DNA from: an uncultured Methanosarcinales archaeon
GTDB lineage: Archaea > Nanobdellota > Nanobdellia > Woesearchaeales > CAZOXR01
Assembly (NCBI GenBank): GCA_964583885.1
Contig: CAZOXR010000002.1
Coordinates: 1 to 25,841 of the forward strand
Direction of reading: 5' to 3'
Length of the DNA stretch: 25,841 nucleotides
A program made the position numbers and the translations under genes. The notes under the pieces were generated by a model, which saw only the letters and a program-made list of their open reading frames with translations, ran no database searches and was not told the origin of the DNA. Numbering within the stretch: position 1 is the stretch's first letter; every line of letters starts with the position of its first letter. Of this stretch, positions 1 through 25,839 are shown one piece after another.

Positions 1-2
1 TA

Positions 3-2237: not shown

Positions 2238-2257
2238 ATTAGAAATATTGAAAAAAG

Positions 2258-2280
2258 GAGTATATATAAAACTTATTCTT
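2258..2280 (-). promoter_or_regulatory. Putative archaeal TATA-box promoter for pfkB-yggS (leaderless transcript)
   Basis: Minus strand AAGAATAAG-TTTTATATATA, with the TATA element ending ~24 nt upstream of the ATG at 2237. Confidence 0.5.
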
Positions 2281-3245: not shown

Positions 3246-3832
3246 TTTTTATTTAATATTTCTTTCATCTGTTCACCACTTCTCAACAAACTAAACTTTG
3301 TTTCAGGGTATTTCTGCTCAAGTGTATCAAGCATTTTTTTGATATCATTATTCTTCTTATTCTCCTTAAAATCAATCTTATTTATTTTTGCAAATAATCC
3401 TGCTTCTTTATCTGTTATAGTTACCAATAATCTGATATATTTCTTGTTTAATCTCTTATTTTTTTTAGCGAAGAGATTATCAAGGAAAAGATTTGCTTCA
3501 TCGTCTAATGTCCATAGAATAACAACCTTATTGATTCTATCTTTTTTGAGCTTGTTTTTAACTGCTTTTTTTGATAAATCCCTAATATCCATATTTTTTA
3601 AGGATATCTTGGCTGGCAGCTCTTTTATTATGCCTTTTACAAGAAAAAAGCTTAGATTGTCAATAATTAATATTCTATCATTTTTTCTGAAGATTTTATT
3701 GATTCTGATGTATTTTCTTACTCTTTTCTCAATTATTTTGGCAAAGCAGCTATCGCAGACATCTTTTATATGGGGCAAATTAACTAATACATTGCTTTTC
3801 TTGCATTTTATACATGTTTTTTTTGTCACCAT
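3242..3832 (-). CDS. Degenerate TtuA/Ncs6(Ctu1)-like protein with N-terminal CxxC...CxxC Zn site and no PP-loop
   Basis: CIKC...CDSC then FAKIIEKRVRKYIRINKIFRKNDRILI, resembling TtuA/Ncs6 N-termini, but SGGKDS is absent; 4-bp overlap with the PLD start. Confidence 0.6.
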   Translation of the reverse strand: MVTKKTCIKCKKSNVLVNLPHIKDVCDSCFAKIIEKRVRKYIRINKIFRKNDRILIIDNLSFFLVKGIIKELPAKISLKNMDIRDLSKKAVKNKLKKDRINKVVILWTLDDEANLFLDNLFAKKNKRLNKKYIRLLVTITDKEAGLFAKINKIDFKENKKNNDIKKMLDTLEQKYPETKFSLLRSGEQMKEILNKK

Positions 3833-3959
3833 TTTGTTACTACTTTAAAATGCTCTTGCTTACGAAACATTTATATATCTCTTTGTATCTATTCATGCGT
3901 GAAGATATAAACTATCTTAGCTTAGCTAGGGTAGGGTTATTATCTATCACCTCTTTTTT

Positions 3960-4010: not shown

Positions 4011-5090
4011 TTATTTTTTCTTCTTGGCTTTACTTTTCCTACTTTTTTTGGATAATCTTCCAGTTAAGAACCCCAATAATAGACCTATGCTAAATAATAT
4101 TACTGCTTTTACTATTATCTCTTTATTTGTCTTTTTTTCTATGATGATGTGGGGCTTTTCTTTGAAATACATGTCTAGGTTGCTGAGTTCTAGAGCATAT
4201 TCCAGATAAAGCAAAGTAGAATATTTATCAGATTCTTTTAGTGAATCAGCATACTCATAGTAACTATAACCTAAAACAGGAAAGATGTCTTTTTTTTGCT
4301 GCTTAGCAAGATTTCTTTTTATTATCTTTAGTTTCTCTTCAATTAAAATATCAATCTGGTCTTCTCCAATACCAACAAGATTGAGTATGGAATCTGCTTC
4401 TGCTTTTGTTTTGCTTGCTTTAAACAGGCAAAGCTCATAATTGCTATTATAAAAATCTTCATAAGCCAGATTAAGCTCTTTTTTTATACTTTCAATATTT
4501 AGTATAGATAAATCAAGATATTGATATCTTTCTTCTGCTTCTGATAATTTGTCCTGGCAGGATTTTTTTAGAATTTCTTTATTCATGTTAAATTCTTTGC
4601 CTCTATGATCAAAGAACGCAAGCCAGAGGTATGCTGAATAGACCCTTTCTGCAGCATATACTAAATCATTAATATCTGTTTCATTTAAATTTTCTTCAGC
4701 TTTTTCAAGATAATCTTCAGCTTCTATAATCCTCTCCTTTACTATAACATATGCTTCAAGGTCAGTTATTGTTTTGATTTCTTTTCTGCTTATTGCCTTA
4801 TTCAATTCATCAATATTCCCTCTTGCTATCGAGATTCTTGTTTCTTTATTATTCTTTGATAAATTTTGAAGCATATTCAAAACATAGCTAAATTTTGTAT
4901 TTGCCCCAAAAAAATAGCTTGCAGAAGAATAATGTCTTTTTTCCTTGAATACTTCTTCTCCTTTTTTTGTAAGATTAATAGCTGTTTTTTCTATTTCTTT
5001 TAATTCTTCATTTTCTTCTTCTTTGATTAATGAAATACTTTTTTGCAATTTGTTGCTTCTTTTATAAAGATCAATTGCCAATTCCTTCAT
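4011..5090 (-). CDS. C-terminal part (helical region plus C-terminal TM anchor) of an interrupted Lon-like S16 surface protease
   Basis: In frame with 5118..5780: ...YSE*VIDQKYLETMKELA...; helical region, TM (IIVKAVILFSIGLLLGFLTG) and a Lys-rich stop-transfer tail. Confidence 0.75.
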   Translation of the reverse strand: MKELAIDLYKRSNKLQKSISLIKEEENEELKEIEKTAINLTKKGEEVFKEKRHYSSASYFFGANTKFSYVLNMLQNLSKNNKETRISIARGNIDELNKAISRKEIKTITDLEAYVIVKERIIEAEDYLEKAEENLNETDINDLVYAAERVYSAYLWLAFFDHRGKEFNMNKEILKKSCQDKLSEAEERYQYLDLSILNIESIKKELNLAYEDFYNSNYELCLFKASKTKAEADSILNLVGIGEDQIDILIEEKLKIIKRNLAKQQKKDIFPVLGYSYYEYADSLKESDKYSTLLYLEYALELSNLDMYFKEKPHIIIEKKTNKEIIVKAVILFSIGLLLGFLTGRLSKKSRKSKAKKKK

Positions 5091-5117
5091 TGTTTCTAAG
5101 TATTTTTGGTCTATTAC

Positions 5118-5780
5118 TTACTCGCTGTACTCCCTTTCTATTCTTTTTCCTGTGAACTCGTAAATAACGCTATTAAGGTTAGAAACTTCTTTTATTTCAA
5201 TTCCTAGCTCTTTTCCATACTCAAAGATATCTGTTTTATTTGTAGAGTTTGTTATATTTAAGAAATCCTCATCAGAAAACCTCTCTCCAATAGGTATAAG
5301 AACTTTTTTTATGTTTTGCTTTTTTGCAGCATCTATCTTAGCTTTTAAGCCGCCAATTGGCCCAACTAGGCCGCCAGAATTGATTGTTCCTGTTATTGTA
5401 ACATTTTCATCCAGAGCAATATCTTTTAACATTGCTATTGTTAATGCTGAGACTGCTGCTCCTGCTGATGGCCCTCCAATAATTGCTGATTCTGCTGTTA
5501 TTTTATAGATAAAATCAAAGTTATCACAGTTTATATCCAAATAATCACACGCAACCTGTTTTGCGAATCTTGTAGACATCTGTGTGTCTATTTTTGTCAG
5601 TGGAAAGATTTCAATAAAGACTCTGCCAGAACCAGGCTGTATTTCCAGATAAAGATCTGCAGGGCTTCCTTCATACACTCCATTTGCCTCTTTAACTGCC
5701 AATAGTTTTAGATGCCCTTGCTTTGCTGCTGCTAAAGGTATTATCAGCAATAAGATTATCAGCAGGATTGTTTTTTTCAT
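5118..5780 (-). CDS. Secreted Lon-type (MEROPS S16) protease domain without AAA+ module; N-terminal part of an interrupted ~589-codon gene
   Basis: Signal peptide MKKTILLIILLLIIPLAAA; GPSAG serine and GGLKAK lysine 43 residues apart, as in E. coli Lon S679/K722; TGTI...G.VGPIGG motif. Confidence 0.85.
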   Translation of the reverse strand: MKKTILLIILLLIIPLAAAKQGHLKLLAVKEANGVYEGSPADLYLEIQPGSGRVFIEIFPLTKIDTQMSTRFAKQVACDYLDINCDNFDFIYKITAESAIIGGPSAGAAVSALTIAMLKDIALDENVTITGTINSGGLVGPIGGLKAKIDAAKKQNIKKVLIPIGERFSDEDFLNITNSTNKTDIFEYGKELGIEIKEVSNLNSVIYEFTGKRIEREYSE

Positions 5781-5870: not shown

Positions 5871-6677
5871 CTATTTATTTATACCATCATCTTCTCTGAA
5901 ATTGCCTCTGTTTATCTCCTGTTTAGGTGTTTTTCCAAATAATCCTTTTAGCATGGTCTTAAGTCTTGGGTCTTTGTATTCTTCTCCGATTAAAGCAGCA
6001 GCCAGTTTTTTGTACTCAACAGTCGCATCCGATTGTTTATGTAAAGTACTTGGAATATTTTTTGATAATGCTTCTAAGATATTTACTTCATGAGGAAGAA
6101 CAGCCAAAACATTACAATCAGCAGCTTTTTCTATTTCATCTAAACTTAATTCAAAATTTTTGTTATATACTTTATTGAGAATTAAGCCTGTTATGTTTGT
6201 TTTTCTTTGCTTAGCCAGTTTAACAGCCCTTAGGGTTGTGCTTAATGTAACATGGTCTGGAGTTGTAACAACAAACAACTCATCACTTGCTATCATTGTT
6301 GCCAAAATTTCCTCATTTAATGTTGGCGAAGAGTCTATTAAGACAACATCATAGTCATCTTTTAATTGTTGTATTTTATATTTCAATCTATGAGGATTTA
6401 TCTTTTTATAGAGCAATGCTCCAGGCATTATGTGAAAACCATGTTCTGTTTCATAAATAGCTTCATTAGCATTGGCTCTGTTGTTTAAAACATGATGCAA
6501 AGTAACCTCAGGATTTACAAAACCCAAATGTAGGGCTAAGTTTGGAGCAGAAAAATTAGCGTCTATTAGTAAAACTTTTTGTTTGAATTCATTAGCTAAT
6601 GCAGCACCTAGCGCAGTTACAGTAGAAGTTTTTCCAACCCCTCCTTTTATAGAGATTATCCCAATAGTTTTTCCCAT
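5871..6677 (-). CDS. minD: MinD/ParA-family ATPase (MinD-like)
   Basis: Deviant Walker A KGGVGKT, LLIDANFSAPNL, VLIDSSP, VVTTPD, ILNKV; near-C-terminal amphipathic segment LKTMLKGLFGK resembling a membrane-targeting sequence. Confidence 0.85.
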   Translation of the reverse strand: MGKTIGIISIKGGVGKTSTVTALGAALANEFKQKVLLIDANFSAPNLALHLGFVNPEVTLHHVLNNRANANEAIYETEHGFHIMPGALLYKKINPHRLKYKIQQLKDDYDVVLIDSSPTLNEEILATMIASDELFVVTTPDHVTLSTTLRAVKLAKQRKTNITGLILNKVYNKNFELSLDEIEKAADCNVLAVLPHEVNILEALSKNIPSTLHKQSDATVEYKKLAAALIGEEYKDPRLKTMLKGLFGKTPKQEINRGNFREDDGINK

Positions 6678-15600: not shown

Positions 15601-17292
15601 AGAATCATATAATGTTCCAGTTGATGTTGTAAACACAACTGACAAGTTATTCTGCATAAAGTCATAAACTTCACTTAGTGTTCTTGTTTCATTAATCAGG
15701 ATACTTCCACCATAGCTATAGACAAAGGTAACATCAGAACCATTTTGGTTATCATTGAACCAAATTTCACCTGTGTCGTAGCTTATATTGAATTCACCAT
15801 TATCATCAGGCGCGCCTGTAACTTCTGTTAGTTTAGTTCCGTTTGTAGTATTATCCCAACCAAAGACAGCAAAGTATTCTGATTGTGTAATCGGATAATT
15901 GTCTATTGTACAATTATCTCCACAGTCAGACTTAATCTCGCTTCCGTAACTGACTTTTGTTGGAGCTGTGTACGTAATTCCAGTCTCATTTCCTGCGCCA
16001 ACAACGAATGCTGCAACTCCTAACTGGACTTCCTCAGATGTTTTTGCAGTTAAGATCTTAAGCGCTTCTGTGAATGATTTCTCAAAGTACCTTATGTATA
16101 ATGTAAATGGTCCTACGTCAGTAGAATTACTTAGGGTAGTTGCATTATAGGTAACAGATGTAAAGTTCTGAGTAACTATCTCGCCTTTTGGGCTGAGCTG
16201 AGTTATAACATCAAATACAGTATCTCCTGATTCATCAAGTAATTTAGCACTGACATTAGCTATGCCAACACCTGCAGTATCAGTTACCTTAAGATCATAT
16301 GTATATTTTCTATCAAAAGAGCCATTTTCAATCCCTATCCATGTAAAGTTCCATGTGGTTGAGTCAATATTTCTTATGCTGCCTCCAGCACCATCAGATG
16401 ACCATCCAAAGCCCTCCTTGAAGTTCAATGTCCTTGTGCTGGATTCTAAGATATCTCCACTCTGAGTTCCACTATCCCCTAAAATAATGTCAACATAAGA
16501 ATCATATAAACTTCCAGTTGTGGTTGTAAACACATCAGACAGGTTAGCCTGCATATAATCATATATATTTGACAAAGTCTTCTCTCCAGTAATCCTTATA
16601 GAGCCACCATAACTGTAAACAGCCCTTACTATAGCCGTTTCATAACCATCATCAAATGTAACATTGCCTGTTGCATAATCAATAGTATACTCACTGGATG
16701 GAATCTTTTTACCAGTTGAGTCATTGTACACATTAAAGAACTCTGATTGTGTAACAGGGATATTGTCCAATATAATGTGATCATCTGTACCAACTGTTTC
16801 ATTCTCTCTACTATCATAACTAACTTCAGTTGGAGCAGTATAATTAGTCCCATTCTGAATAGATGCATTTACTAAAGTTAAAACTGCAAATGCATTAGTA
16901 GATAGCTGTGTTTCTTCATCAGTCTTTGTACTTAACACCTTATATGCATCAACAAAACTCTTTCCGTAGGTCTTTATCTTCTGAGTAAATGGACCAATGT
17001 CAGTCATTGTGTTAGAATCAGAATACACATAAGTGCCATATGTAAATATCTGGCTAGGTATCTTACCAGAACCATTTGTAAGCTCATTGAATACAAGATC
17101 GCCATGCAAATCCTTAAGGTTAATAGTTACATTTCCAAGAGCAGTACCGCCAGTGTCAGTTACAGTCAGATCATATGTATACTTTCTAAAGAAAGTGTCA
17201 TTATCTGCTTTCCATGTAAACTGCCATGTATCTGATTCAACGTTTATTGTAGTGCCGTTAGCACCTCCAGCTGACCATCCAAAGCCACTATC
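6679..17292 (-). CDS. Giant multidomain surface protein lacking its own N-terminus: repeated ~295-aa modules, Ig/MG2-like domains, helical stalk, TM helix and ~600-aa cytoplasmic E/K/R coiled coil
   Basis: Frame is open from 17292 (after TGA 17293-17295) to TAA 6679. The track start 17109 is an internal TTG (same codon reads ...NLKDLHGD... in the second copy). No signal peptide; TM YWPIILIILSVLTIFAYLV at ~8530-8590; many N-x-S/T sequons. Confidence 0.85.
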   Translation of the reverse strand, partial: DSGFGWSAGGANGTTINVESDTWQFTWKADNDTFFRKYTYDLTVTDTGGTALGNVTINLKDLHGDLVFNELTNGSGKIPSQIFTYGTYVYSDSNTMTDIGPFTQKIKTYGKSFVDAYKVLSTKTDEETQLSTNAFAVLTLVNASIQNGTNYTAPTEVSYDSRENETVGTDDHIILDNIPVTQSEFFNVYNDSTGKKIPSSEYTIDYATGNVTFDDGYETAIVRAVYSYGGSIRITGEKTLSNIYDYMQANLSDVFTTTTGSLYDSYVDIILGDSGTQSGDILESSTRTLNFKEGFGWSSDGAGGSIRNIDSTTWNFTWIGIENGSFDRKYTYDLKVTDTAGVGIANVSAKLLDESGDTVFDVITQLSPKGEIVTQNFTSVTYNATTLSNSTDVGPFTLYIRYFEKSFTEALKILTAKTSEEVQLGVAAFVVGAGNETGITYTAPTKVSYGSEIKSDCGDNCTIDNYPITQSEYFAVFGWDNTTNGTKLTEVTGAPDDNGEFNISYDTGEIWFNDNQNGSDVTFVYSYGGSILINETRTLSEVYDFMQNNLSVVFTTSTGTLYDSYVDIILGDEENGTGILNESATRTVNFEDGFGWSAGGANGTTINVESDTWQFTWKADNDTFFRKYTYDLTVTDTGGTALGNVTINLKDLHGDLVFNELTNGSGKIPSQIFTYGTYVYSDSNTMTDIGPFTQKIKTYGKSFVDAYKVLSTKTDEETQLSTNAFAVLTLVNASIQNGTNYTAPTEVSYDSRENETVGTDDHIILDNIPVTQSEFFNVYNDSTGKKIPSGEYSVDYETGNVSFDDGYETAIVRAVYSYGGSILVTGNKTLSQIYDYMQANLSDVFTTGTGSIYTSYVDLILGIGSSNKTLIFDSQADWNVGTFSHTNTTPGGSVTLNMTGGEYASNGTFTSQIFDANSSADWKNVTWDNVSVPKTNVTFQLRSCYDVSCTGSVFVGPDNTNTTYFINNTGEDLSAIGNISDNQFFQFRAFLKTNDSDLTPQLLWVNVSYKKFQQVGRIKEPSAKTLNFEDGYGIGGTNTSSYSVNLQSSDWQFTWKGPTNGTFYQQYSFKLKVIDSAGNAIEDANVSLTDSAGNLVFSKLTNEGGNITEYEITYATYNYTNGSDATTFTPHVLSITKTSYVTSSGQVVVTSPQDLLYTLSTSCDPDSDYNYALLYPMTFNNVTEKITVWGSNGSDGHTAIGSNESDPITFEHIFQFGKAKYGSCAVTNPASGTYAVLVPLDIGNTTSELNTTYVKTSGQSVDFAKQVRMLPNARLISGLLSEDENPYSGSTLSFSGVDTWNVSEEGQLYLLNDSYLELYDSFLLHKLIVNESNYSMLYWWGDIIAKRSSFENWWTIRFLSDNNTLEDIVITNVGEGFYPAINQTGTLDTIKSRKTEEEGVYFAYGVDVNITDLTITETNGSHVRVLNYTGTANLLNPSLNWSNITWTTGSFSGTINRKYTYDLTTTDSAGSALPNVSIKIIDVKGDSLFDLKSDSDGEIPQQTLTRSIFDYTYKTGNDQGPHTLYLKKYGKSFQEIAKEFSAATVETTQLADNPFTTSDRTEVQAKNISGIVFNPPGVISYEDEVYTNFTKTGDLNNTPITQSEFFTVFGWDNVTNGTKLTLVTDTPDANGEYSINYETGRLTFFNNQSEQDTNVIPAYSYGGNITIVTGTASADCITMQDLYDFMQANLSDVLTTVDGTAYTSYVNLIIGNITTKGGCIKDSTKSLSFEDGYTYSFSSVGGYIDLLGTTSGSGSGGLPLNIFDDVGTQFNPGDMVRIFSTTVDSDGALVAADVTVTVYYPNETTLSTGSSTSISTGRFRYNFTLPSTVPTGTYRVDIDATYSDDEVYDNLAFKVEAASSGGGSTGGLPLNIFNTMGHSYQPGADVIISSTTVNSSGHLVNASVNITIKKPDGTTQVSSWSDLQSTGRFEYSFEAAASPQGTYTADISANYSGYEIHDTEAFIVSVNAGSGNASFPPRVHVEAPAVIEVNTPFNIVVLTTDEDGVVTDCSSNTSNITIRDTMNNTKVVDDQPMDKFGTGLYNYSYSTPKQSTYVAIAECTVSAVEYIGIKEFSTEDVSSSGGSGSSTGGLPLNLFSSVGPFYSPNDEIAVFATITNSSGVLVNATVNVSVFYPNSTTLNSSQATELALGRYKYNYTLPSSAPIGTYEVRIDANYSGSEMHDTLTFIVSSAIEDIKANLTQIIDAIDNTIIPYLQDINKTVNDSYNYLQNTIFPKVNDANSTISDVLNKWGTYNASTIYIKINDTYNDTRNLLTKWGTYNAELLYNVSNLTYTQTISIYNDMATASALANVQTNVTWLINNVATEENITTIISKIDIIDSNVSTLITRTDCSNPTNSVLCDYLNDINTTVDWLKDNVATQSNISDIQSNLTEIITRLTEINTTTQNSYDYLQNTIYTSLNETWNNTERILSYIGTPSDSESANTLFGEHAYTQNRIADIQVNLTDLKTIVTQINVTTFEINNTVSSILTTVNNLTDLHQCLADPNSTICSILNSIESTVDSLQLGVTIVDFEIDSLAAVSPRYASEEVQIEATFSYSNGSLASPASYNLTVLYPNGAVWFSYNTGFNDDNNDGVYIWDEVSLSDDPTTGAYSVHLWANDSSGREASKAAMFRVATGGPYSVTLDCPTSSDVGSSLGCTLTIIDEGDFEVESTCDVWVDTDKNEQRDTGEPQKRDSQETDPEENVTKVYSMDVPSSHPTGTYLAWVSCSYAGSAQPPSTAYDSLILTSAAAPEEAPAPSGGPGKKIIKAIVIEEEEVPEEITLFDVKIKILPRYTEIPAGSALAAEISIYNIGEISTKEKDTKVTYLIKDLDGKIVVSDDETIAIKDKVEFVKEISVPKDLESGEYTFVVEIRYEDKFAIGSARFNIIEEISIEKPAPPKAPSYWPIILIILSVLTIFAYLVHETKKRRDESEPETEITHKFRPKKRLERDVSIKTLKELYIKSEEEELKKELEKERRKTEELRKREEKERRRDEERLKKEVQVELRRQEERKKFEEEEIKAEELKRREESTRIEEQKKRDNEERLKKQLEEEKRKQEELRKEEELIKQIELRKLEKHKRKLTEQIKLEEERKAREEMLKKELEEERRKQERLRKQEELIKLEELKRLEKGSIMAEELRKQVEVKRIEEDEIEDEEERLKKELEDELRKQEDLRKQVVVKRGKEERTSEDDRRKAEELRKEEEFKKVEEEKRKQEERRKQEELKKREELIKLEELKKLEEEKRKVEERGAKEELEEVKTTLEELRKQEEERLKKELEDERRKQEELKKQEEEKKKLEELRKQEEEVKAREENLKKELEEERRKTEELRKKQEEERKAEEQRKQEEEIKAREENLKKELEEEKRKQEELRKLEEGRLKKEIEEEKTKQEEIRKEEESRKQEELKKIEEEKRKADEESLKKELEEERRKTGELRRRQQDEKKAEDERKIVGERKTREEKLKKELEEEKRKQEEIKITEEQKRNEDEKKRDEEERLKKEIEVEKGKEYKPLTTKVIEEAHPKRIERAHDNKGLVSKLKEVYA
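6689..6695 (-). promoter_or_regulatory. Shine-Dalgarno site for minD inside the 3' end of the giant gene
   Basis: AGGAGGT 11 nt upstream of the minD ATG; the giant-gene TAA (6679-6681) is 1 nt from that ATG. Confidence 0.7.
6790..8420 (-). repeat. Imperfect coding repeats in the E/K/R-rich cytoplasmic tail
   Basis: About 12 copies of an LKKELEEE(R/K)RKQEEL-like motif; a 41-aa duplication (123-nt offset, 7224 vs 7347); an exact 30-bp copy at 7591 and 7921. Confidence 0.85.
10453..10551. repeat. 21-bp exact direct repeat encoding KWGTYNA twice (78-nt period)
   Basis: AGCATTATAAGTTCCCCATTT at 10453..10473 and 10531..10551. Confidence 0.85.
14927..15516. repeat. 590-bp perfect direct repeat, copy 1
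   Basis: Base-for-base identical to 16697..17286 (offset 1770 nt = 590 codons); similarity continues with mismatches to about 14710/16480. Confidence 0.95.
16697..17286. repeat. 590-bp perfect direct repeat, copy 2
   Basis: Identical to 14927..15516; identity ends abruptly after AAAGCC (17286), followed by ACTATC here versus GTCCTC in copy 1. Confidence 0.95.
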
Positions 17293-20200
17293 TCAGAAGA
17301 ATTTGCCTGTGAATAATCAGTTCCATCTGAAGTTGTTATCTGGCACTTTACAACATCTTCTGCTGATGTCTCATCACTAACCAGAGTGAACTGGTCTTTT
17401 TGGTCAGAATATATAGCATATATCTGTGAAGCAGACAGGCTTCTGTTAAATACCCTCACTTCGTCTATTAAGCCATCAGCATCTCCTCCATGGTCATCTA
17501 TTCTTGACCCAATAACACAACTGACAGTAGCAGAAATAGCAGTATTGAAAGCATCATAAGTCACATTTTTATCTTTTGTGCCATTAAGATACATAACAAC
17601 ATCCTTGCCATTATCTAATGTAATAGCAACATGAGTCCATACATCTAAAGTGACATTTGACTTCCATTGGAATGCAGTTGCGCCCCATCTTTCAATGCCT
17701 AGTGTCTGGAATGTTCCTGCAGGACCTCCAGTAATAGAAAACATCTTGTAAGTATTTGTTGTGCCATAAGAGAACCAAGTATCATAGCCTCCCATTGCTC
17801 TTGGCTTCATCCAAAACATTATAGTTCTTGAACTGTTGCCTGTTGGAAGGTTTGATGTTCCGCAGTCTATATAGTCATTACTGCCATCAAAGTCATAAGC
17901 TCCAGAGCCATTAATGCCTCCTGTCTTGTTCCACGAAGAGCCATTTATCCATCCATGATTGTCTTCTCCGCTAAAATCATAGGTCCAGTTAGTAGAATTA
18001 TGCTTTGTATCAAAAGACATATGTAATTGTGTCATTGAGATATTGTTAATAAACCAGTTATAGCTGTTAAATAATGCATCATCATCTTCATCTGATTGTG
18101 TTGTATTGATGCATGTCAGATTAGCATAGGTCATATTCTTTGGGTGGGTTGTTGAGTTCAATTTTGGCGCAGAGATTGTTGGTGGCTCATTATAATCCAT
18201 AGTGACATTCAGAACATACTCGCTGAATAACTTATCTTTTGAAGTTAAGCTTACATTATACTGCACAAACCTTGCTTCTGGATTTGTTGAAGCCTGAATC
18301 CAATCAGTATACTTCAAAGCAGATGTTTCATAAAGTTCTTTTACTTCTGTTGTTGTCAAAGATTGGTTGAATACCATAACTTGGTCTATTGAACCGTTCC
18401 AATAACTTCCCACTGTATTTGGTCTTCTTCCAATACCTACATCTATAACTGCTCCAGGAATATCTCCACCAGCATTATTCTCACTATTAGTTTGTAGTCC
18501 GTCATAGTAAGTATAATAATCATCACCGTTTCTGACACCGCAATAATGATGCCATTCATCTGTTACAGGAGTTATTCTAAAACCAATATTTGCACCATTC
18601 CTATTAAAGTAAGCACAACCTACTGAAGAACACCTAATTATTTGTTCATTAAGTCCTGTACTACCATCTGTTTCTACAATGTTTCTTTCAGTTCCATCTA
18701 ATCCATTAGCATTCGCCCAAGCACAATGAGTATAGTTACTTGAACCTACAATTAAATTATTGCTGTCTGATACTAAAATCCAATCATTTACACCATCAAA
18801 ATCACACCCAGCATCAATGAAGCCTGTTGTGTTCTGGCAAGTTGCACCTAATATTTCCCCATGATTTTCGTAGCCTGAAGAATCTAAAACATGAGTTCCA
18901 TTAAAGTAAGCTGTTCCATTATCCATGCTCCAAAAGCCGGTTAAGTTCTCAAGATTAACATTAGAGCCATTATAGATTGGAGAATAGCTATCTGTTGCAT
19001 TGCCTTCTGAAACTCTTATTTTGGTTACTGTTGCGTTTGCAAAAGAATCATAGTCTGGATGTGTGCCATTTGTTGCATTAAACATCTCTGAAATCTCTGT
19101 TGCTGATAATGAATAATTAAAAATCATAGTTGAATCTATTGTCCCATTAAAACTTGAGCTGCCTCCTTCTGCACCAATCCATAAATTTCCAGTAATATCA
19201 TTTGAACTTAGATTTCCTCCTCCACTTCCCTCTAATACTCCATCAACCCAAATCTGTCTGCCTGTTCCATTCCAGATAAAAACAAGATGATACCATTGTT
19301 CTTTATCAAAAGCTCCTGCTGCACCTGCATATAACCAACCTGCATCAGTATCCCATATCCCTACTTGATCTGAATTATCATAACCCCATATTATTCTTGG
19401 TGTGTCTGAACTATATAATCCCAACATAGAATTGGATGAGCCTGATAGAGTAGGGTAAACCCATTGACTTATACTTATAGCGTCTCCATTAAAAACAGGT
19501 GAAGTTACAGTAATAGAATTACCACTACCCCCTTTAAAATTCATTCCATATTCCCCATTATGTGCATCGCTAGTAAATGTTGCACCAGTGATTGTTCCGT
19601 CATTACTATAAGTACTTTCATCATAAACTGTTGAGCCAGAACCTTCTTCAAATCTCCATAAGCCAAGAATAGAATCATTTACATTAAAGTCTCTTGAAGA
19701 GTTTAAAGAAACATTAAGGATCTTTCTGTTTGTGCCTATGTCTAATGGTTTTGCAACAGAGAACCATCCAGATGTAAGTGACTCATTTATTGTAACAGAG
19801 TAATCAGGTGGTGACTCACGCCAGTCTTTTCCAAAGTAAAGACCAGTATAGCCTGTTGTATTAGAGTCAATAACTTGTATTACTGTTGGATCAACAATAT
19901 AGTCAAACTCAACAGAATCACCAACAATCTCTAAATCAAATGTTGAATAACTGTCATTCAAAGCAGTTAAATAAACCTTATAATAAGATTCCGCTGATAT
20001 ATTATTGAATGTAGCTATTAACTCATTTCCTTGCTCAGTATAGACCGCTATACTAGAGCCTGAATCAGACCTTGCGTAAATTGTAATATCTTTAGAACTA
20101 TCAAGCGCTTCTTTGAAAGTAGCCCTTACATAATGTCCAGCAGGTATTGGCTCTGACCAATAGTCATCCTGCGCCTTCACATGTTCATAAATATCAGATA

Positions 20201-22073
20201 CAAAGTTTCTATCTGAATCCAGATGCTCTGCAGCGCTAATCTCAATAATTAGCTCATATGTCTGGCTGGATAGTGAAGGAACAACCCATTCAATATAGTC
20301 AATCAATGAGTTACCATTAGTGTCATAAGCATCAAAGCTGGCTACTTCTCTGCCAGAATCCTTTAGCCAGTAAAGTTTAATTTGTCCTTCTCTTGCTTCT
20401 GTTGGAAGTGAAGTATAGGCTAGAATGTTAGTATAATGCACTGAAGAGCTAATTACAACCTGTTTCCTGCTAGAACTGATTTCTTCTTCAACTGCTTCTG
20501 GAGCTGGTGTTTCATACTCTATTTCAACTTCATCTACTTCTTCTTCTATTATTAATTCAGTAGTATCTTGAGATGCAACTGTATCAACTACTGCAGAAGC
20601 AGTTATCAAATTATAAGTATCAACATAATTAACCCTGTTCTTTGTCTTTATTTTTGCTTCCTTTACTTTTTCCTTTACCCTCTTATAAACAAACTTGTTA
20701 ACAGAAACATTAGTTGCTTCTTTTGGTAAGATCACAGTAAGGTTGCTTGTTTTGTTTGCAAGCTTAACAATCTTCTTCCATTTGACTGGCTTGCCAATAA
20801 CAGCACTATACTGTATTACTTCTTCTTCAGAAACAGTGGCATTACTAACCTTAGCCAAACTTACAACTTCAAGCTCTTCTAAAACAGAGTAATCAACACT
20901 GTCAATCGCTAAAGTAGCATTAGAGACATTAAATATCAATGTATAGAATGTCTCATTGAACCCAGATAACAAACAAGTATCAACACAAACATCATTAAAG
21001 CTTATCCTATCATCAGAGAAAGTTGCATTCAAGCTTCCCCATTCTGAGTTATGTATATCTGAATAAGGGTTCTCCAAACTAGCATTATAATCAACATAAA
21101 GCACTTGAGAAGAAATAACATTATTAACAGAAGCTCCATGCTGGCTATACGCAGATAAAAAGTCTTCATCCCATTCCAAAGATGTAGGCATTAATCCAAT
21201 AAAGTTACAGCATGCCTCAGCACCATAACAAACAGTTGTTATCTCTTCATTATCAGCTGAATAAGTCTCCCATTTTGTACAAACCTTAGAAAAGTCAACA
21301 TTCCAGCTAAAGTCAGTATTCTCAACTGTAAAGTCAATTATACCATCACTTGCCTCAACACCATCATCATCTGGATCATATGCAGTACCAGAAGCATAGT
21401 CAAGATTAATTATTATATTTTTAGTGATATTTGTTTCATTTATTGGTATAGTTTCATTTATTATTGATATATTTTCTAATGGTTTTGTCTCATTGATTGT
21501 TTCGTTTATTGGTATTGTTTTATTGGTTTGATTTGTTTCATTGGTTATTTCACTAGTTTCATTTGAAACAGCCAATCCAGTTATGCCGGCAATCCATTCC
21601 CCTACTAGGGTATCACTATCAAACACAACATACTTAACGCCTTTATGCAGGACATAAACCTGCGCATAACCATCCTTGCTAATAGAACCACTTATTTTTA
21701 ATGATCTCAAATCACCAGGATTCTCTAAGAACCAAGCATGTTCAGAATTAGAATCAATTACTAAACCCAAATCCTGCGTATAATTGTTCTCAACAGTTAT
21801 CGTTGTATATCCTGTTAGTGCTGGCTTAAAGACAAAGAACCCTACAGCTAAGAATATAATAACTAACAAAGCTAGGGGTATCTTTAGATGCTGTTGGCTT
21901 CTTTCTTTGTTTTCATAAGAATCAAGGTCTTTTTGTGATTTAGAAATATGCTCATTACAAAAGTCAAGCTGATCATTTAACAGAACCATCTCTGCTAAAA
22001 TCTTTCTTTTTGTGGATAAACCTAACTGAATATCTTTCCTCAATTTGTCTCTTTTTTTATTTACTGAATGCAT
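17244..22073 (-). CDS. N-terminally membrane-anchored surface protein with three LamG/concanavalin-like domains; probably the N-terminal part of the giant gene
   Basis: TM IPLALLVIIFLAVGFFVF after a charged N-terminus. LamG signatures LGLWRFEEGSG...W.H.VFIW...IDSTMIFN.SLS, LTGFWSMD...FDGVNDWI...IDQVMVFN, and HMSFD...FDGSNDYID...IDEVRVFN. The last ~14 codons are an out-of-frame reading of repeat copy 2. Confidence 0.85.
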   Translation of the reverse strand: MHSVNKKRDKLRKDIQLGLSTKRKILAEMVLLNDQLDFCNEHISKSQKDLDSYENKERSQQHLKIPLALLVIIFLAVGFFVFKPALTGYTTITVENNYTQDLGLVIDSNSEHAWFLENPGDLRSLKISGSISKDGYAQVYVLHKGVKYVVFDSDTLVGEWIAGITGLAVSNETSEITNETNQTNKTIPINETINETKPLENISIINETIPINETNITKNIIINLDYASGTAYDPDDDGVEASDGIIDFTVENTDFSWNVDFSKVCTKWETYSADNEEITTVCYGAEACCNFIGLMPTSLEWDEDFLSAYSQHGASVNNVISSQVLYVDYNASLENPYSDIHNSEWGSLNATFSDDRISFNDVCVDTCLLSGFNETFYTLIFNVSNATLAIDSVDYSVLEELEVVSLAKVSNATVSEEEVIQYSAVIGKPVKWKKIVKLANKTSNLTVILPKEATNVSVNKFVYKRVKEKVKEAKIKTKNRVNYVDTYNLITASAVVDTVASQDTTELIIEEEVDEVEIEYETPAPEAVEEEISSSRKQVVISSSVHYTNILAYTSLPTEAREGQIKLYWLKDSGREVASFDAYDTNGNSLIDYIEWVVPSLSSQTYELIIEISAAEHLDSDRNFVSDIYEHVKAQDDYWSEPIPAGHYVRATFKEALDSSKDITIYARSDSGSSIAVYTEQGNELIATFNNISAESYYKVYLTALNDSYSTFDLEIVGDSVEFDYIVDPTVIQVIDSNTTGYTGLYFGKDWRESPPDYSVTINESLTSGWFSVAKPLDIGTNRKILNVSLNSSRDFNVNDSILGLWRFEEGSGSTVYDESTYSNDGTITGATFTSDAHNGEYGMNFKGGSGNSITVTSPVFNGDAISISQWVYPTLSGSSNSMLGLYSSDTPRIIWGYDNSDQVGIWDTDAGWLYAGAAGAFDKEQWYHLVFIWNGTGRQIWVDGVLEGSGGGNLSSNDITGNLWIGAEGGSSSFNGTIDSTMIFNYSLSATEISEMFNATNGTHPDYDSFANATVTKIRVSEGNATDSYSPIYNGSNVNLENLTGFWSMDNGTAYFNGTHVLDSSGYENHGEILGATCQNTTGFIDAGCDFDGVNDWILVSDSNNLIVGSSNYTHCAWANANGLDGTERNIVETDGSTGLNEQIIRCSSVGCAYFNRNGANIGFRITPVTDEWHHYCGVRNGDDYYTYYDGLQTNSENNAGGDIPGAVIDVGIGRRPNTVGSYWNGSIDQVMVFNQSLTTTEVKELYETSALKYTDWIQASTNPEARFVQYNVSLTSKDKLFSEYVLNVTMDYNEPPTISAPKLNSTTHPKNMTYANLTCINTTQSDEDDDALFNSYNWFINNISMTQLHMSFDTKHNSTNWTYDFSGEDNHGWINGSSWNKTGGINGSGAYDFDGSNDYIDCGTSNLPTGNSSRTIMFWMKPRAMGGYDTWFSYGTTNTYKMFSITGGPAGTFQTLGIERWGATAFQWKSNVTLDVWTHVAITLDNGKDVVMYLNGTKDKNVTYDAFNTAISATVSCVIGSRIDDHGGDADGLIDEVRVFNRSLSASQIYAIYSDQKDQFTLVSDETSAEDVVKCQITTSDGTDYSQANSSEIVALDGQLEVLTALQ

Positions 22074-22180: not shown

Positions 22181-22372
22181 CTATTTTACTAACCATAAAT
22201 TTACACCTGCTTTTTTCAGCCTGTCAACTTTTCCTTCTATAACCAGCTCTAGCATGTATTTATCAGCTGTATTCCACGAAATCTTGAAATGAGAAGCTAG
22301 TTCAGAAGTAGTTACCACTCTGTTTTTCTTTACAAACTTGAGTATCTCTTCCCTTATATTATGATATTTCAT
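22181..22372 (-). CDS. Small winged-helix DNA-binding protein (stand-alone wHTH, DeoR/FaeA-like)
   Basis: IREEILKFVKKNRVVTTSELASHFKISWNTADKYMLELVIEGKVDR: HTH pattern followed by a wing. Confidence 0.8.
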   Translation of the reverse strand: MKYHNIREEILKFVKKNRVVTTSELASHFKISWNTADKYMLELVIEGKVDRLKKAGVNLWLVK

Positions 22373-22375
22373 AAG

Positions 22376-22436
22376 TTATTACATATCTTATTACATATGA
22401 ATATTCATAATATTGAGGAGTATTTAAATCTTTCTG
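22376..22436 (-). promoter_or_regulatory. BRE/TATA promoter with candidate operator upstream of the wHTH-giant gene unit
   Basis: Minus strand AGAAAG-A-TTTAAATA (TATA 22421-22428); perfect 14-bp palindrome TATGAATATTCATA (22396..22409); 11-bp direct repeat TTATTACATAT at 22376 and 22388. Confidence 0.6.
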
Positions 22437-22457
22437 AATGGGTAGAATTCTAGGGAT

Positions 22458-22486
22458 CAAAAATTAGAAAAAAAATAAGAAAATAT
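22458..22486 (-). terminator. Possible oligo-U archaeal terminator after the TM-JAMM gene
   Basis: A run of U-rich tracts on the minus strand immediately after the stop at 22495. Confidence 0.35.
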
Positions 22487-22494
22487 ATCATATC

Positions 22495-23826
22495 TTACCT
22501 GACTTCCCACTTGATTGCACGAAAATCAAGAGCTTCGTGTTCCCCAGGCATAACTAGGATATAAATTCCAGTATCACAATGAATGGCATTAATAATGGGC
22601 TCAGGGTTTTTCATTTCCCCCCACGAGAATATATCATCTTGTGATGGTTTACAATCCCCATTAATGTGGGAATGAATCGAACCCAATGAATTCTCTGTTT
22701 GGCAAGCAGGATCCTCATGTGAGATTACAACATCTTCTCCCTGGTGGAATAATTCTGGTGCTATTAGGTCATTGACATATATCTCATTATTAATTTTATC
22801 TCCAATCAAGCAAAAAAGATACTCCCCTTTATTTGCAGAGTATTCATTGTTTAACTTATCTAAGACTTCTTTTGTGAAAATAACAGACGTATCATCTCTA
22901 TACACCATAATAAAATCAGATTCTTCTACTTCCTTTACTTGGGGAGCAAAATAGTGGGTAATAAAAGAAAAAAGCAGATAGAGTGTTAGCAGTAATATGG
23001 TAATTGCGATGATTGTTATAAGGAATACCCTTCTGCTTTTCTTTTCCTGTTTCTCAATACCTGCAGTAGATCTTAAGAAATCTTTCATTAGCTGATTCTG
23101 ATAGAAAAACCCATAGCCTAATACTATGTAAGTTGAAAGCCAAAAGATTTCAATGATATCACCAGAAAGATAGGAACTGAAATTAAAAGCAAAGTAAACA
23201 TCAAAAATAAATACCGGTATAAAGGCAATTGCGATTATTAACCACCCAATAGATAAAGAACCTTTTTTAAATGCCAAAGAAGTCTTTACTAAAAGGAAAA
23301 TCCCAAAAAGAAGAACAAAATCAGCCACAATGTACCCATTATTAAGCACATTCTCTAATAGTGATGCTCCTCCGAAAACGACTGGAATAATATTCAGATA
23401 GATAATAGCGAAAATTAAAAATATTATAAATAAATAAATAAATTTCTTTCTCTGTTTTCTTAATTCTGGATCTGAAATAGAAGAAACACTAAAAAAAGCC
23501 AATATTAAGGGAATATACCCTAAAAACCTTAATAACTCAGAGTAATAGCGTACAGATTGGGAGAATATAATCCAGATTAATTCTGCCAGAAACCAGCTTG
23601 CAATTCCCAATACTATTAAAAATAATGTTTTTCCTTGCAAACTTTTTAATGAGTATATCCTTACAGCATATATTCCTAATACTGCTGCTGAAAAAGAATA
23701 AAAAACAGCTAAAAAGTCGGTTAAGAAAATATAGTTATCACCACCAAATCTTGTAAGATACATTACAATGGTAGCTAACAAAACTATGGCCATTACAATA
23801 AAACCTTTCTTATTATTATCTATCAT
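22495..23826 (-). CDS. Polytopic membrane protein (~9 TM, sensor-like) fused to a C-terminal JAB/MPN+ (JAMM) metalloprotease domain
   Basis: About nine hydrophobic segments in aa 1-295. C-terminal GEYLFCLIG (Glu) and HSH-INGDCKP-S-QD-D give an exact E...HxH-x7-S-x2-D JAMM motif. Confidence 0.8.
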   Translation of the reverse strand: MIDNNKKGFIVMAIVLLATIVMYLTRFGGDNYIFLTDFLAVFYSFSAAVLGIYAVRIYSLKSLQGKTLFLIVLGIASWFLAELIWIIFSQSVRYYSELLRFLGYIPLILAFFSVSSISDPELRKQRKKFIYLFIIFLIFAIIYLNIIPVVFGGASLLENVLNNGYIVADFVLLFGIFLLVKTSLAFKKGSLSIGWLIIAIAFIPVFIFDVYFAFNFSSYLSGDIIEIFWLSTYIVLGYGFFYQNQLMKDFLRSTAGIEKQEKKSRRVFLITIIAITILLLTLYLLFSFITHYFAPQVKEVEESDFIMVYRDDTSVIFTKEVLDKLNNEYSANKGEYLFCLIGDKINNEIYVNDLIAPELFHQGEDVVISHEDPACQTENSLGSIHSHINGDCKPSQDDIFSWGEMKNPEPIINAIHCDTGIYILVMPGEHEALDFRAIKWEVR

Positions 23827-24569
23827 TTTGCTTTAACATACTTTCCGTATAACTCCCTTGTCTGTTTCTTTGCATTTTCAGGTCCAACTAATTTTGATAA
23901 AATAGTTTCGAATTCGTTTAAAAGTAATTCTGGTTTTTTTTCACGGGATTTCTTTATTATCTTACCTGCGTTTGCTCCAAACAAATTCTCCATTAGCTTG
24001 ACAGCCTCTCCTTTAGCCAGGGACACTTTAGCTCCCAAGTTAGTTACTTTATCTACAAGCATTTCTATTTGTCCAACAACCTTTTTCCCATAATCATTTT
24101 CCAACAGCAAAAAGAATATCTTTTTCTTATTGACCCTTGCAAACATTATCAGGTCTTGGATATATCTGTACATAATTGGGTGGTTGCCATACAGGAGGAT
24201 GTTAGATAAAGAATCAAAAATAATACCATCAACACCAGCATTCAAAGCTTTTTTTGCTGCTATATTGATTTCAGTATATGCTTGAGGAGAAGACACATAT
24301 ACTACATTGCCCTTTTCTTTGGACTTGCCTTCTTTTTGTGAGACACAATCTATAAATAAAATCTTATCTATGTCTATCTTCTTTTTCTTTAAATCTTTTG
24401 AGAAATTGCTATAGCTCTTGTCCAAAGATATTAAACCAAATTTTTTCCCCTTCTTCTTCAAATGTAGAGAAATTATTTTTTCTAGAAAGGAAGCACGTTT
24501 GTTAGGGGAAGAAACAAAAAGAACAATGTCATTTTCCATGCTCTTTTTAATAGTTGACTCGACTTTCAT
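23823..24569 (-). CDS. Inactive KaiC/RecA-fold ATPase-like protein with a small helical C-terminal domain
   Basis: RecA-fold strands (ISLDKSY, ILFIDCVS, IIFDSLSNILLY, MLVDKV) but no GxxGxGKT; ATGA overlap with the TM-JAMM gene. Confidence 0.7.
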   Translation of the reverse strand: MKVESTIKKSMENDIVLFVSSPNKRASFLEKIISLHLKKKGKKFGLISLDKSYSNFSKDLKKKKIDIDKILFIDCVSQKEGKSKEKGNVVYVSSPQAYTEINIAAKKALNAGVDGIIFDSLSNILLYGNHPIMYRYIQDLIMFARVNKKKIFFLLLENDYGKKVVGQIEMLVDKVTNLGAKVSLAKGEAVKLMENLFGANAGKIIKKSREKKPELLLNEFETILSKLVGPENAKKQTRELYGKYVKAK

Positions 24570-24615: not shown

Positions 24616-25806
24616 TTATCCTTTTTTCCCAATTTCACCATATATTTCCTGTTCTGGATAAACCTCTATACCATCATCAGTTATCTGCATAGCAACTATC
24701 TTTTTTTGGTGTTTTGCTCCTCTAAGCTTTAATACCTCAATTGCGCTTTCCCTTATATTTCCTCTTTGTATGTTGTACAAAACAACTACACCATCTGCTA
24801 AAAACTCCTCTACACCTGATTCTGTTAGTTTAACAGGGATTTCAGTTGATTCTGTTATTAAAAATGAAGTGGCGCCTAATTCTTCAAAAAGCCTGAATAA
24901 CTGTTCAATGTATATTCTATAGGTCTCTTCTTTTCCAACAAATGCTGCTGCAATAGCAGATAAAGAATCCAGAATAACCCTGTCTGGCTTAAAATTGCCA
25001 GGAAATAAAACAGGTTTAACATCAATTAATAGCTCACCTTTTGCCTTTTCCAGCAAAGCTTCAACCTGCCTTGTTATAGCGAATGGGTCATATTTTTGGA
25101 TTACTAGTTTGCCCTCTCTTTCTAATTTGTCAGGATTCCAATTAAAATCACGCATATGCTCCTTTAATCTTGTTATCGATTCTTCAAATGTCATATAGAG
25201 GCATTTTTCTCCATTAATGGCACCATAGTTTAATGTTTGTAAACCAAATATTGTTTTTCCAGAACCAGGACCTCCGCAAAGTAATGTAGATGTACCTTTT
25301 GGGACTCCTTTTTCCAATAATTTATCAAAACCAGGAATTCCTATTTTCATCCACGTATTTTTTTTCTGCTTTTCTGGATGTTTGCTCTTTGTTATTATCT
25401 TTTTAATAACCTCTCTCTGTTCCTCAATCTGTTCTTCGTGCTCTTTTTTTGGCTGTTCAGCTATTTGTTGAACACTTTCAGTGTGTTCTTTTCGCTCCTC
25501 ACCCTCTTTTTCGACATCTTTTTTTGCGTGTTTAGTTGCCTTAATGACCCCTTTTATGAATCCCTGAATGCGCTTTTTTTGTTTCTTGATATGTTTTTTA
25601 TGCTCTTCCTTTTTTGGATGCTTTGCTTTTTTTATTATCTGCTTTTTTTCTTTCTTTGCTGGCTTCTTGTGCTTCTTGGTTTTTTTAACAATACCTTTTA
25701 AGAACTTACCAATAAAGTCTTTCTGCTTCTTTTTATGCTCTTTCTTTTTTGGATGTTTGGCTTTTTTTATGACGTGTTTTCTTTTTTTCTTTGTTTGTTT
25801 TTTATG
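24616..25806 (-). CDS. Single-domain KaiC-like (RecA superfamily) ATPase with a long Lys-rich N-terminal extension
   Basis: Walker A GGPGSGKT, MTFEE, Walker B VILDSLS, EEFLADGVV, EVLKLRG. The frame stays open 152 codons upstream of ATG 25350 to a TAA at 25807-25809 (...KHPEKQKKNTW-MKIGIPGFD); the same repeat continues beyond that TAA to the window edge. True start undetermined. Confidence 0.8.
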   Translation of the reverse strand, partial: HKKQTKKKRKHVIKKAKHPKKKEHKKKQKDFIGKFLKGIVKKTKKHKKPAKKEKKQIIKKAKHPKKEEHKKHIKKQKKRIQGFIKGVIKATKHAKKDVEKEGEERKEHTESVQQIAEQPKKEHEEQIEEQREVIKKIITKSKHPEKQKKNTWMKIGIPGFDKLLEKGVPKGTSTLLCGGPGSGKTIFGLQTLNYGAINGEKCLYMTFEESITRLKEHMRDFNWNPDKLEREGKLVIQKYDPFAITRQVEALLEKAKGELLIDVKPVLFPGNFKPDRVILDSLSAIAAAFVGKEETYRIYIEQLFRLFEELGATSFLITESTEIPVKLTESGVEEFLADGVVVLYNIQRGNIRESAIEVLKLRGAKHQKKIVAMQITDDGIEVYPEQEIYGEIGKKG

Positions 25807-25839
25807 TTAGTTTTTTTTATTATTTATTCCTTTAATGAA
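25420..25839 (-). repeat. Lys-rich coding repeats (45-48 aa period) in the KaiC N-terminal extension
   Basis: Units start FIKGI (25839), FLKGI (25704) and FIKGV (25560); IKKAKHPKK.EHKK occurs twice plus ITKSKHPEK; 39 of the first 82 residues after the TAA are Lys. Confidence 0.8.

Follow-up and report, generated by a model that had tools for sequence, protein, structure and literature searches.

The gene at 22495–23826 on the minus strand of a 25,841-nucleotide stretch of archaeal DNA (contig CAZOXR010000002.1; hereafter the window) encodes a genuine, conserved membrane protein, in which a sensor-type module of eight transmembrane (TM) helices is joined to a JAMM metallopeptidase domain. The integrity of the gene, the MPN fold and intact motif of the C-terminal domain, the homology of the N-terminal module to signaling inputs, and the conserved linkage to neighboring genes are all shown by computation. 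As a whole, these features are best explained by a fusion of two genes, whose product would offer its eight-helix (8TM) module as a docking platform to an adaptor and a pair of KaiC-type proteins inside the cell, and would use an outward-facing JAMM domain to cleave the chain of a surface protein. We hold this explanation with moderate confidence.

Gene fusion and architecture

The open reading frame (ORF) 22495–23826 is a single frame of 443 codons with a product of 443 amino acids, here designated P0001 (P and L numbers denote relatives and loci of this analysis). Hydropathy analysis resolves nine hydrophobic segments (residues 9–27, 33–51, 69–87, 99–117, 132–150, 166–184, 196–214, 224–242, and 267–285). 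The loop between the eighth and the ninth segment (residues 243–266) contains 7 lysine or arginine (K/R) residues, and an acidic tail of 158 residues follows the ninth helix. This arrangement agrees with a preliminary description of the sequence, which had proposed eight TM helices, a charged loop, and a ninth TM helix. The sequence patterns W..AE.IW, SE.LRFLGY.PL, and Y..ADF.LL quoted there were located at residues 78–85, 96–107, and 165–173, respectively; of the pattern W....Y, both residues are present but the spacing is wrong, the actual sequence being W229-x3-Y233, one residue shorter.

The features described below lie on the minus strand. The 8TM module (residues 1–242; 23101–23826), with a predicted cytoplasmic N terminus, was delimited by hydropathy, the AlphaFold2 model, the K/R bias, and comparison with relatives. 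It is followed by a K/R-rich, putatively cytoplasmic loop (residues 243–266; 23029–23100) that marks the junction of the two ancestral genes, and by the ninth TM helix (residues 267–292; 22951–23028), the counterpart of the N-terminal signal anchor in stand-alone TM-JAMM proteins. The minimal MPN+/JAMM domain (residues 310–443, 134 amino acids; 22498–22899), which is predicted to be extracytoplasmic, completes the protein.

Fused full-length homologues of 444–474 amino acids were retrieved by a word-indexed search (P0002–P0008 at 53–67% identity and P0011 at 35% identity). They stem from ENA, JGI, Logan, and NCBI assemblies, and in all of them the frame is kept across a divergent linker. The junction at 23029–23100 is also spanned by a 1020-bp contig present in two sequencing runs (X1 and X2) from two studies of marine/seawater metagenomes, which covers 22410–23429 with zero differences to the window, one of the two runs possibly being the source sample. 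Both lines of evidence address the concern, raised in the preliminary description, that two adjacent genes were joined by an error of sequencing or assembly. The existence of split forms with overlapping genes would fit such an artefact, but ∼9 independent metagenomic homologues (35–67% identity) are likewise fused and hold the frame across the linker, and the contig bridges the junction without an insertion or deletion in both runs. An assembly artefact is very unlikely, and we give it next to no weight. In a third run (X3), short low-depth contigs resemble 23417–23449, carry a one-base insertion behind 23430, and then continue into unlike sequence; they probably represent a related strain or another organism and are no sign of an error in the window. 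Among the runs carrying the stretch, no RNA run is listed.

Each half of the protein is common alone. HMMER, run exhaustively against 1.84 billion representatives, yielded 412 matches at E ≤ 0.001, the majority of which are 8TM-only proteins of ∼250–290 amino acids, and which also include proteins of ∼175–210 amino acids that consist of a single TM helix and a JAMM domain. In locus L002, the two halves are encoded in split form, the 8TM gene (48% identity, E = 2e-72) overlapping the start of the TM-JAMM gene (P0018), and the pair is preceded by a homologue of DUF7090 at 40% identity. The 8TM and TM-JAMM genes are likewise adjacent in locus L022. Because the halves exist elsewhere as overlapping or adjacent genes, the gene in the window represents a natural fusion of two neighbors.

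The resemblance of the N-terminal part to the input domains of kinases and cyclases, suspected in the preliminary description, is recovered by structure and sequence searches. Foldseek aligned residues 1–265 with a “Histidine kinase N-terminal 7TM region”, with histidine kinases, and with a PAS/GGDEF protein among the AlphaFold database (AFDB) clusters (E = 5e-6 to 4e-5). A phmmer search of the whole library found P0137 (E = 4.4e-9), in which the same module is followed by two more TM helices, a GGDEF domain, and an HD-GYP domain. The HisKA_7TM profile (PF16927) is matched by 1 of the 146 members (E = 0.93), the match spanning 4–218 of 224 profile positions, and we treat the relation as fold-level and distant-sequence kinship, not as membership. 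Like the HisKA_7TM-type inputs of histidine kinases and GGDEF/HD-GYP proteins (PF16927 and relatives), the module has a helical-bundle fold over residues 1–265, shares motifs with a GGDEF and HD-GYP protein, and would end in the cytoplasm. Unlike these inputs, it is followed by no kinase or cyclase output; a separate protein of the KaiC type is its predicted cytoplasmic partner, and the domain fused to the module would lie on the opposite side of the membrane. Conserved intramembrane polar residues of the module include D37, E82, E97/R100, D169, D209, and E226. The sole PDB matches of the 8TM part were designed GPCR-like bundles with Z scores of 12.4–12.7, within the noise for helical bundles, and were rejected as a fold match. 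In two relatives, P0060 (530 amino acids) and P0086 (541 amino acids), tandem duplication of the 8TM module has given rise to 16-TM proteins.

The JAMM domain and its predicted orientation

The JAMM motif is complete and canonical, as the preliminary description had stated. It consists of the catalytic E335 (22822–22824) and the zinc-site core H385-S-H387-x7-S395-xx-D398 (22633–22674), and conforms to the motif EXnHS/THX7SXXD as defined on AfJAMM (PMC300881). In an alignment of 33 diverse relatives with a mean column identity of 27%, the residues E, H, H, S, and D are invariant. The same holds for C392 and C417, and two further cysteines are nearly invariant. P0001 holds four cysteines in all (339, 375, 392, and 417), every one of them within residues 310–443.

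AlphaFold2, run on a 146-row alignment, modeled the protein with a mean predicted local distance difference test (pLDDT) score of 90.4 and scores of 94–98 in the C-terminal domain. Foldseek returned an MPN match for this domain (E = 3.6e-5, probability 1.00). Superposition of residues 310–443 (Foldseek and VIA-align) gave a Z score of 14.9 and a root mean square deviation of 2.3 Å over 121 residues for Rpn11, followed by PfJAMM1 (Z = 14.8), a Caldiarchaeum Rpn11 homologue (14.7), BubCD (13.9), and Cap3 (12.4). The C terminus is thereby assigned to the MPN fold, which the preliminary description had taken as decisive for its proposal. The best sequence match in the PDB is AfJAMM, which is weak (E = 0.22) and yet aligns the whole zinc loop including its cysteine. 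C392 and C417 correspond to C74 and C95 of AfJAMM, whose disulfide braces the zinc loop (PMC300881), and the C-terminal domain of P0001 is probably stabilized by two disulfides.

By fold and motif, the domain belongs to the JAMM/MPN+ superfamily (MEROPS M67; Pfam clan JAB) and is nearest to the minimal archaeal AfJAMM/PfJAMM1 type. The cut-off of a curated profile (PF14464 or PF01398) is not reached by the domain, and Prok-JAB is matched by 21 of the 146 relatives at E ≤ 1 (best E = 3.6e-5); judged by the Prok-JAB profile, it is a divergent subfamily. With AfJAMM (AF2198; PDB codes 1R5X and 1OI0) and PfJAMM1 (PDB codes 5LD9 and 5LDA), the domain shares a minimal MPN fold of ∼130 residues and the same E...HSH-x7-S-xx-D motif, and with AfJAMM also a cysteine inside the zinc loop, aligned with C74, and a partner cysteine on the next strand. 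Both of these enzymes are soluble proteins of the cytoplasm, and SAMP2 is cleaved by PfJAMM1. The domain studied here, by contrast, is preceded by a TM helix and predicted to point outward; it possesses a second conserved cysteine pair and scores below the Prok-JAB cut-off.

Four independent lines argue strongly for a position of the JAMM domain outside the cell, the orientation that the preliminary description had considered possible from the odd number of TM helices. The first is the distribution of charges. Across 119 relatives, the mean number of K/R residues is 2.0 in the N-terminal tail, 2.7 in loop 2–3, 3.1 in loop 4–5, 1.65 in loop 6–7, and 1.2 in loop 8–9, with 0.35–0.6 in loops 1–2, 3–4, 5–6, and 7–8. 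The second line comes from P0137, where an even number of TM helices separates the last helix of the module from the nucleotide-using GGDEF and HD-GYP domains. It follows that the module should end in the cytoplasm, and that one further helix would export whatever comes after it. Third, all 44 stand-alone TM-JAMM proteins from genomes of the phylum possess a clear TM helix and exactly four cysteines after it, to which the four cysteines of P0001 correspond; on average, these proteins have 3.5 K/R residues before the helix versus 0.8 behind it, with no case of a reversed bias. Finally, in the predicted complex described below, the soluble DUF7090 protein touches precisely those loops that were called cytoplasmic.

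In the model, DSSP merges TM3 and TM4 into one helix (residues 63–118). The eight-helix topology that would result was rejected, as the two ends of this stretch contact a single cytoplasmic partner and are both K/R-biased. Because the loops 57–65 and 117–120 contact one and the same soluble partner, the helix 63–118 must be a hairpin.

A JAMM domain facing the cytoplasm would make the protein a membrane-tethered desampylase or deconjugase of ubiquitin-like (Ubl) proteins, comparable to PfJAMM1, HvJAMM1, Cap3, or BubD, located beside KaiC proteins. Its nearest solved folds are indeed cytoplasmic Ubl proteases, the merging of TM3 and TM4 would alter helix parity if real, and contig C54 of the genome carries an E1-like ThiF gene and a second, faint JAB match. 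However, the K/R bias of the 119 relatives and of the 44 TM-JAMM proteins is opposite to what this orientation demands, the two loop contacts require the hairpin, and the four conserved cysteines are confined to this very domain. Moreover, the cassette has no E1, E2, or Ubl gene, and ThiS/MoaD was looked for and not found in the window's own genome, which is 59% complete. We regard the cytoplasmic orientation as quite improbable. The protein is also not a member of the Ubl-deconjugating JAMM systems (desampylases, Cap3, BubD/BilC), because location (predicted outward) and gene linkage (neighbors KaiC, DUF7090, and a winged helix-turn-helix protein) fail, and SAMP or Ubl conjugates are unlikely substrates of an outward-facing domain.

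On contig C54 (L019 and L020), a 5′-open ORF (1–783) with the faint Prok-JAB match (E = 0.04) is followed by a gene for a ThiF/E1-like protein of 507 amino acids (787–2310; E = 8e-16) and by a gene for a protein of 285 amino acids that belongs to no family (2310–3167). This cluster may be a cytoplasmic Ubl-type conjugation or defense operon.

The predicted KaiC-type partner and the four-helix adaptor

The gene directly upstream of the fusion (23823–24569, minus strand) matches DUF7090 and encodes a protein of 248 amino acids, composed of a RecA/KaiC-like core and a C-terminal four-helix adaptor (residues ∼183–248; nucleotides 23826–24023). The ATG of the fusion gene overlaps the stop codon of this gene as ATGA, and the two genes are described as translationally coupled. 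The DUF7090 core folds like FlaH/ArlH (best match, PDB code 4YDS), PH0284, and KaiC. It lacks a Walker A motif, the sequence VSSPNKRAS standing at the position of GxxGxGKT, and this stretch is not conserved among the homologues. The four helices at the end of the protein (residues 185–247) carry the motifs LFGxxAxK and LVGPENAxKQ.

The core of a KaiC-family ATPase with an intact P-loop (GGPGSGKT) is encoded further upstream (24616–25350, minus strand; PF06745 at E = 2e-52). An active KaiC-family ATPase and an inactivated paralogue thus share one operon, the composition of a KaiC-like signaling cassette. The frame of the ATPase extends upstream (25351–25839, minus strand) as a very lysine-rich sequence, which contains one TAA and lacks a canonical start codon. 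The homologue in locus L003 was called as a protein of 371 amino acids with a similar lysine-rich N-terminal extension (...KHPKKANKGEW versus ...KHPEKQKKNTW in the window), and the 244-residue KaiC ORF is therefore probably 5′-truncated.

Prediction of a complex between residues 1–295 of P0001 and DUF7090 gave an interface score (ipSAE) of 0.73, as against 0.02 for the best control; this score is the model's own confidence, based on alignments built in this analysis, and its mark is reached by 58 of 80 solved complexes and by 2 of 110 mismatched pairs. Three runs agreed in at least 94% of contacts, with a pLDDT of at least 79 for the partner. The predicted contacts connect residues 57–65, 117–120, 185–192, and 247–255 of P0001, the last of these lying in the junction loop, with residues 194–204 and 223–239 of DUF7090.

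A profile of the DUF7090 tail alone was run against 1601 stop-to-stop frames from all fetched loci, and detected small ORFs that adjoin 8TM genes. One is located just upstream of the 8TM gene in L017 (4750–4971, ORF 4771–4974; E = 4e-8), one just downstream of the 8TM gene in L016 (5509–5772, ORF 5527–5775; E = 9e-7), and one overlaps the start of the fused homologue P0011 in L001 (4896–5201, ORF 4935–5204; E = 1e-5); a further hit in L014 (2314–2568) is marginal (E = 2.1). These stand-alone adaptor-like ORFs of 67–89 amino acids are homologous to the four-helix tail of DUF7090 and form an unannotated family; no Pfam family covered the adaptor in a Pfam search. The adaptor and the 8TM module thus travel together, with or without a KaiC-like core on the adaptor. 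Since stand-alone adaptor ORFs lie beside 8TM genes, they lend independent support to the predicted docking. Together, the complex prediction and the gene pairs provide moderate to strong support for the predicted docking of the ∼65-residue DUF7090 adaptor on the cytoplasmic loops of the 8TM module.

L003 shows the same gene order (KaiC, DUF7090, fusion), as does L002 with split genes in place of the fusion. DUF7090 and the fusion are found on shared contigs in L003 and in the pairs P0167/P0007 and P0171/P0006, DUF7090 homologues thus co-occurring with three other fused homologues. 8TM-only genes adjoin genes for DUF7504/KaiC-like proteins, PAS proteins, HAMP histidine kinases, and response regulators, with one in an unrelated context. 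A 63-residue winged-helix protein is encoded directly downstream of the fusion (22181–22372, minus strand) and also adjoins the split cassette in L002.

It has been proposed that KaiC-like ATPases are the principal signaling hubs of archaea. Such hubs, with inactivated KaiC paralogues and adaptor domains, were reportedly described by Makarova, Galperin, and Koonin in mBio in 2017, a survey that is said to name neither a JAMM output or input nor the 8TM partner described here. The cassette resembles this concept in that an active KaiC stands beside a homologue without Walker A (DUF7090/DUF7504), a small helical adaptor, and a membrane partner. Like ArlH/FlaH (PDB code 4YDS), DUF7090 would be a single-domain KaiC-like protein docked on a membrane machine. 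FlaH, however, binds ATP, whereas DUF7090 has no P-loop; the partners differ, and the window contains no archaellum genes.

Proposed function, distribution, and related systems

We propose that two genes, which are adjacent elsewhere, were fused to encode one polytopic protein. The 8TM module, with its N terminus inside, would present four K/R-rich cytoplasmic loops as a docking platform for the ∼65-residue four-helix adaptor, which forms the C-terminal extension of the pseudo-KaiC DUF7090, itself encoded beside an active KaiC-family ATPase. The ninth TM helix would return the chain across the membrane and display a minimal, AfJAMM/PfJAMM1-like zinc metallopeptidase outside, where this domain would most likely break a peptide or isopeptide bond within the extended chain of a protein that is secreted or exposed on the surface. 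Its activity may be coupled to the KaiC/pseudo-KaiC pair in the cytoplasm. In the simplest view, the protein would be a receptor-like unit, in which TM9 and the 8TM bundle, with its many buried acidic and basic residues, link the outer peptidase head mechanically to that pair. Either KaiC would gate the protease, or the engagement of a substrate would be reported inward, with the winged helix-turn-helix protein as a possible output. The pockets of JAB domains accept an extended chain (PMC3239186), and for this reason the likeliest substrate is an isopeptide cross-link or the tail or linker of a protein on the cell surface. Catalysis and a peptide substrate are moderately supported; the direction of signaling and the link to giant surface proteins are only weakly indicated.

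Several points weigh against this proposal. The JAMM peptidases characterized so far target Ubl tails within the cytoplasm, and nucleotides may be the substrates of some JAB clades (PMC3239186), so that an extracellular peptidase activity would be without precedent. AfJAMM is cytoplasmic and has its disulfide nevertheless (PMC300881), and the four cysteines might instead bind a second metal. The Pfam Prok-JAB profile scores P0001 itself below threshold, at 12.6 bits versus a cut-off of 25 (E = 0.13). On the side of the partner, the docking score is the model's own, the locus of P0011 contains the small adaptor ORF with no KaiC nearby, and a neighborhood census of 44 stand-alone TM-JAMM loci found no recurrent neighbor and no family in more than 6 loci. 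As these loci have no common neighbor, the link to KaiC is limited to a narrow clade. The DSSP assignment of TM3 and TM4 belongs here as well, as does the fact that the outward topology is a prediction from sequence and model.

Alternatively, the outward MPN domain could serve as a sensor head that binds a ligand, or could hydrolyze non-peptide substrates, and report to the KaiC pair through the 8TM bundle. This would suit an 8TM module of the sensor type, a deaminase-like/JAB fold in which nucleotides or nucleic acids are the inferred substrates of some clades (PMC3239186), and a TM-JAMM neighborhood census in which no protease substrate was identified. Pure binding domains (MPN−), however, usually lose the catalytic set, whereas the full set of E, H, H, S, and D is invariant here at 27% mean identity, and the nearest structures are peptidases. 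We consider a non-protease head rather unlikely.

Downstream of the fusion, two genes on the same strand encode giant LamG/Ig-like surface proteins (17244–22073 and 6679–17109). A special case of the cleavage of surface chains by the JAMM domain would be a dedicated maturation or shedding protease for these giant proteins, timed by the KaiC pair. Besides the shared strand and close spacing in the window, this is suggested by the winged helix-turn-helix regulator between the cassette and the giant genes, which recurs in L002, and by locus L017. In this 8TM-only locus, a 5290-residue surface protein (MG2, Big_13, CARDB; 1–3934, minus strand) is encoded beside a cluster of 8TM, DUF7504, histidine kinase, and response regulator genes. 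By contrast, no giant gene is seen in the DNA that is available for L002, L003, and L001, and the 44 TM-JAMM loci lack any recurring neighbor. So narrow a role is, in our estimation, unlikely.

Of 400 sampled high-quality genomes of the phylum, 73 contain a match at E ≤ 1e-5, ∼60 of them with TM-JAMM only and ∼12 with 8TM only; a single genome has both halves, unlinked. The fusion was found in none of the 400 except the window's genome (887 kb in 112 contigs, 59% complete), and none turned up in 40 closer relatives. The source is probably a DPANN-type archaeon, as suggested by relatives with genomes of 0.5–2.1 Mb, a relative labeled Woesearchaeota, and the marine/seawater runs that contain the sequence. 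Profile scans of genome contigs gave no confirmed relative with alignment A1 and two loci only with alignment A5.

The preliminary description knew of no characterized fusion of a polytopic receptor with a JAMM domain, and the architecture corresponds to no family in Pfam, NCBIfam, or the Atlas. The one match from NCBIfam was spurious and below threshold, a feature search of the ESM Atlas gave no usable match, and a shape search of the same resource gave JAB clusters only, with no full-length architecture. Literature searches found no TM-anchored or extracytoplasmic JAMM domain, no such fusion, and no pairing of an adaptor with an 8TM module, which does not prove that none has been described. 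By analogy alone, sensor-transducers of the BlaR1/MecR1 type are comparable, as these polytopic proteins also join sensing and zinc-protease functions across the membrane. Their geometry is reversed, however, with the protease in the cytoplasm and the sensor outside, and the folds are unrelated.

To our knowledge, all JAMM enzymes characterized to date act intracellularly, on ubiquitin-like tails, and almost no receptor-level partners of archaeal KaiC-like ATPases are known to us. It is possible, although doubtful, that P0001 represents the first outward-facing JAMM isopeptidase and the first TM unit to link a surface protease to a KaiC-type ATPase hub, cutting isopeptide or extended peptide links in the giant adhesins of its own cell or in the envelope of a partner cell in a small-genome, probably host-dependent archaeon, with the KaiC pair controlling it or receiving its report. 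The single-TM JAMM proteins (∼60 of the 400 genomes) would then constitute an unrecognized class of surface metalloproteases. If true, the display of a conserved, catalytically intact JAMM domain on the outer side of the membrane would extend what is known of the chemistry and biology of these proteases, and would identify a family of surface enzymes in small-genome archaea, whose cell–cell contacts are poorly understood. The analysis also defines a three-protein unit with residue-level contact predictions, consisting of KaiC, of a pseudo-KaiC that bears the four-helix adaptor, and of an 8TM receptor. There is a fair chance that the arrangement as a whole will reveal a new functional class.

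Downstream of the giant surface protein genes, the minus strand of the window encodes a protease-domain protein with Lon_C only (5118–5780), a MinD/ParA ATPase (5871–6677), and a PLD-like protein (2280–3245).

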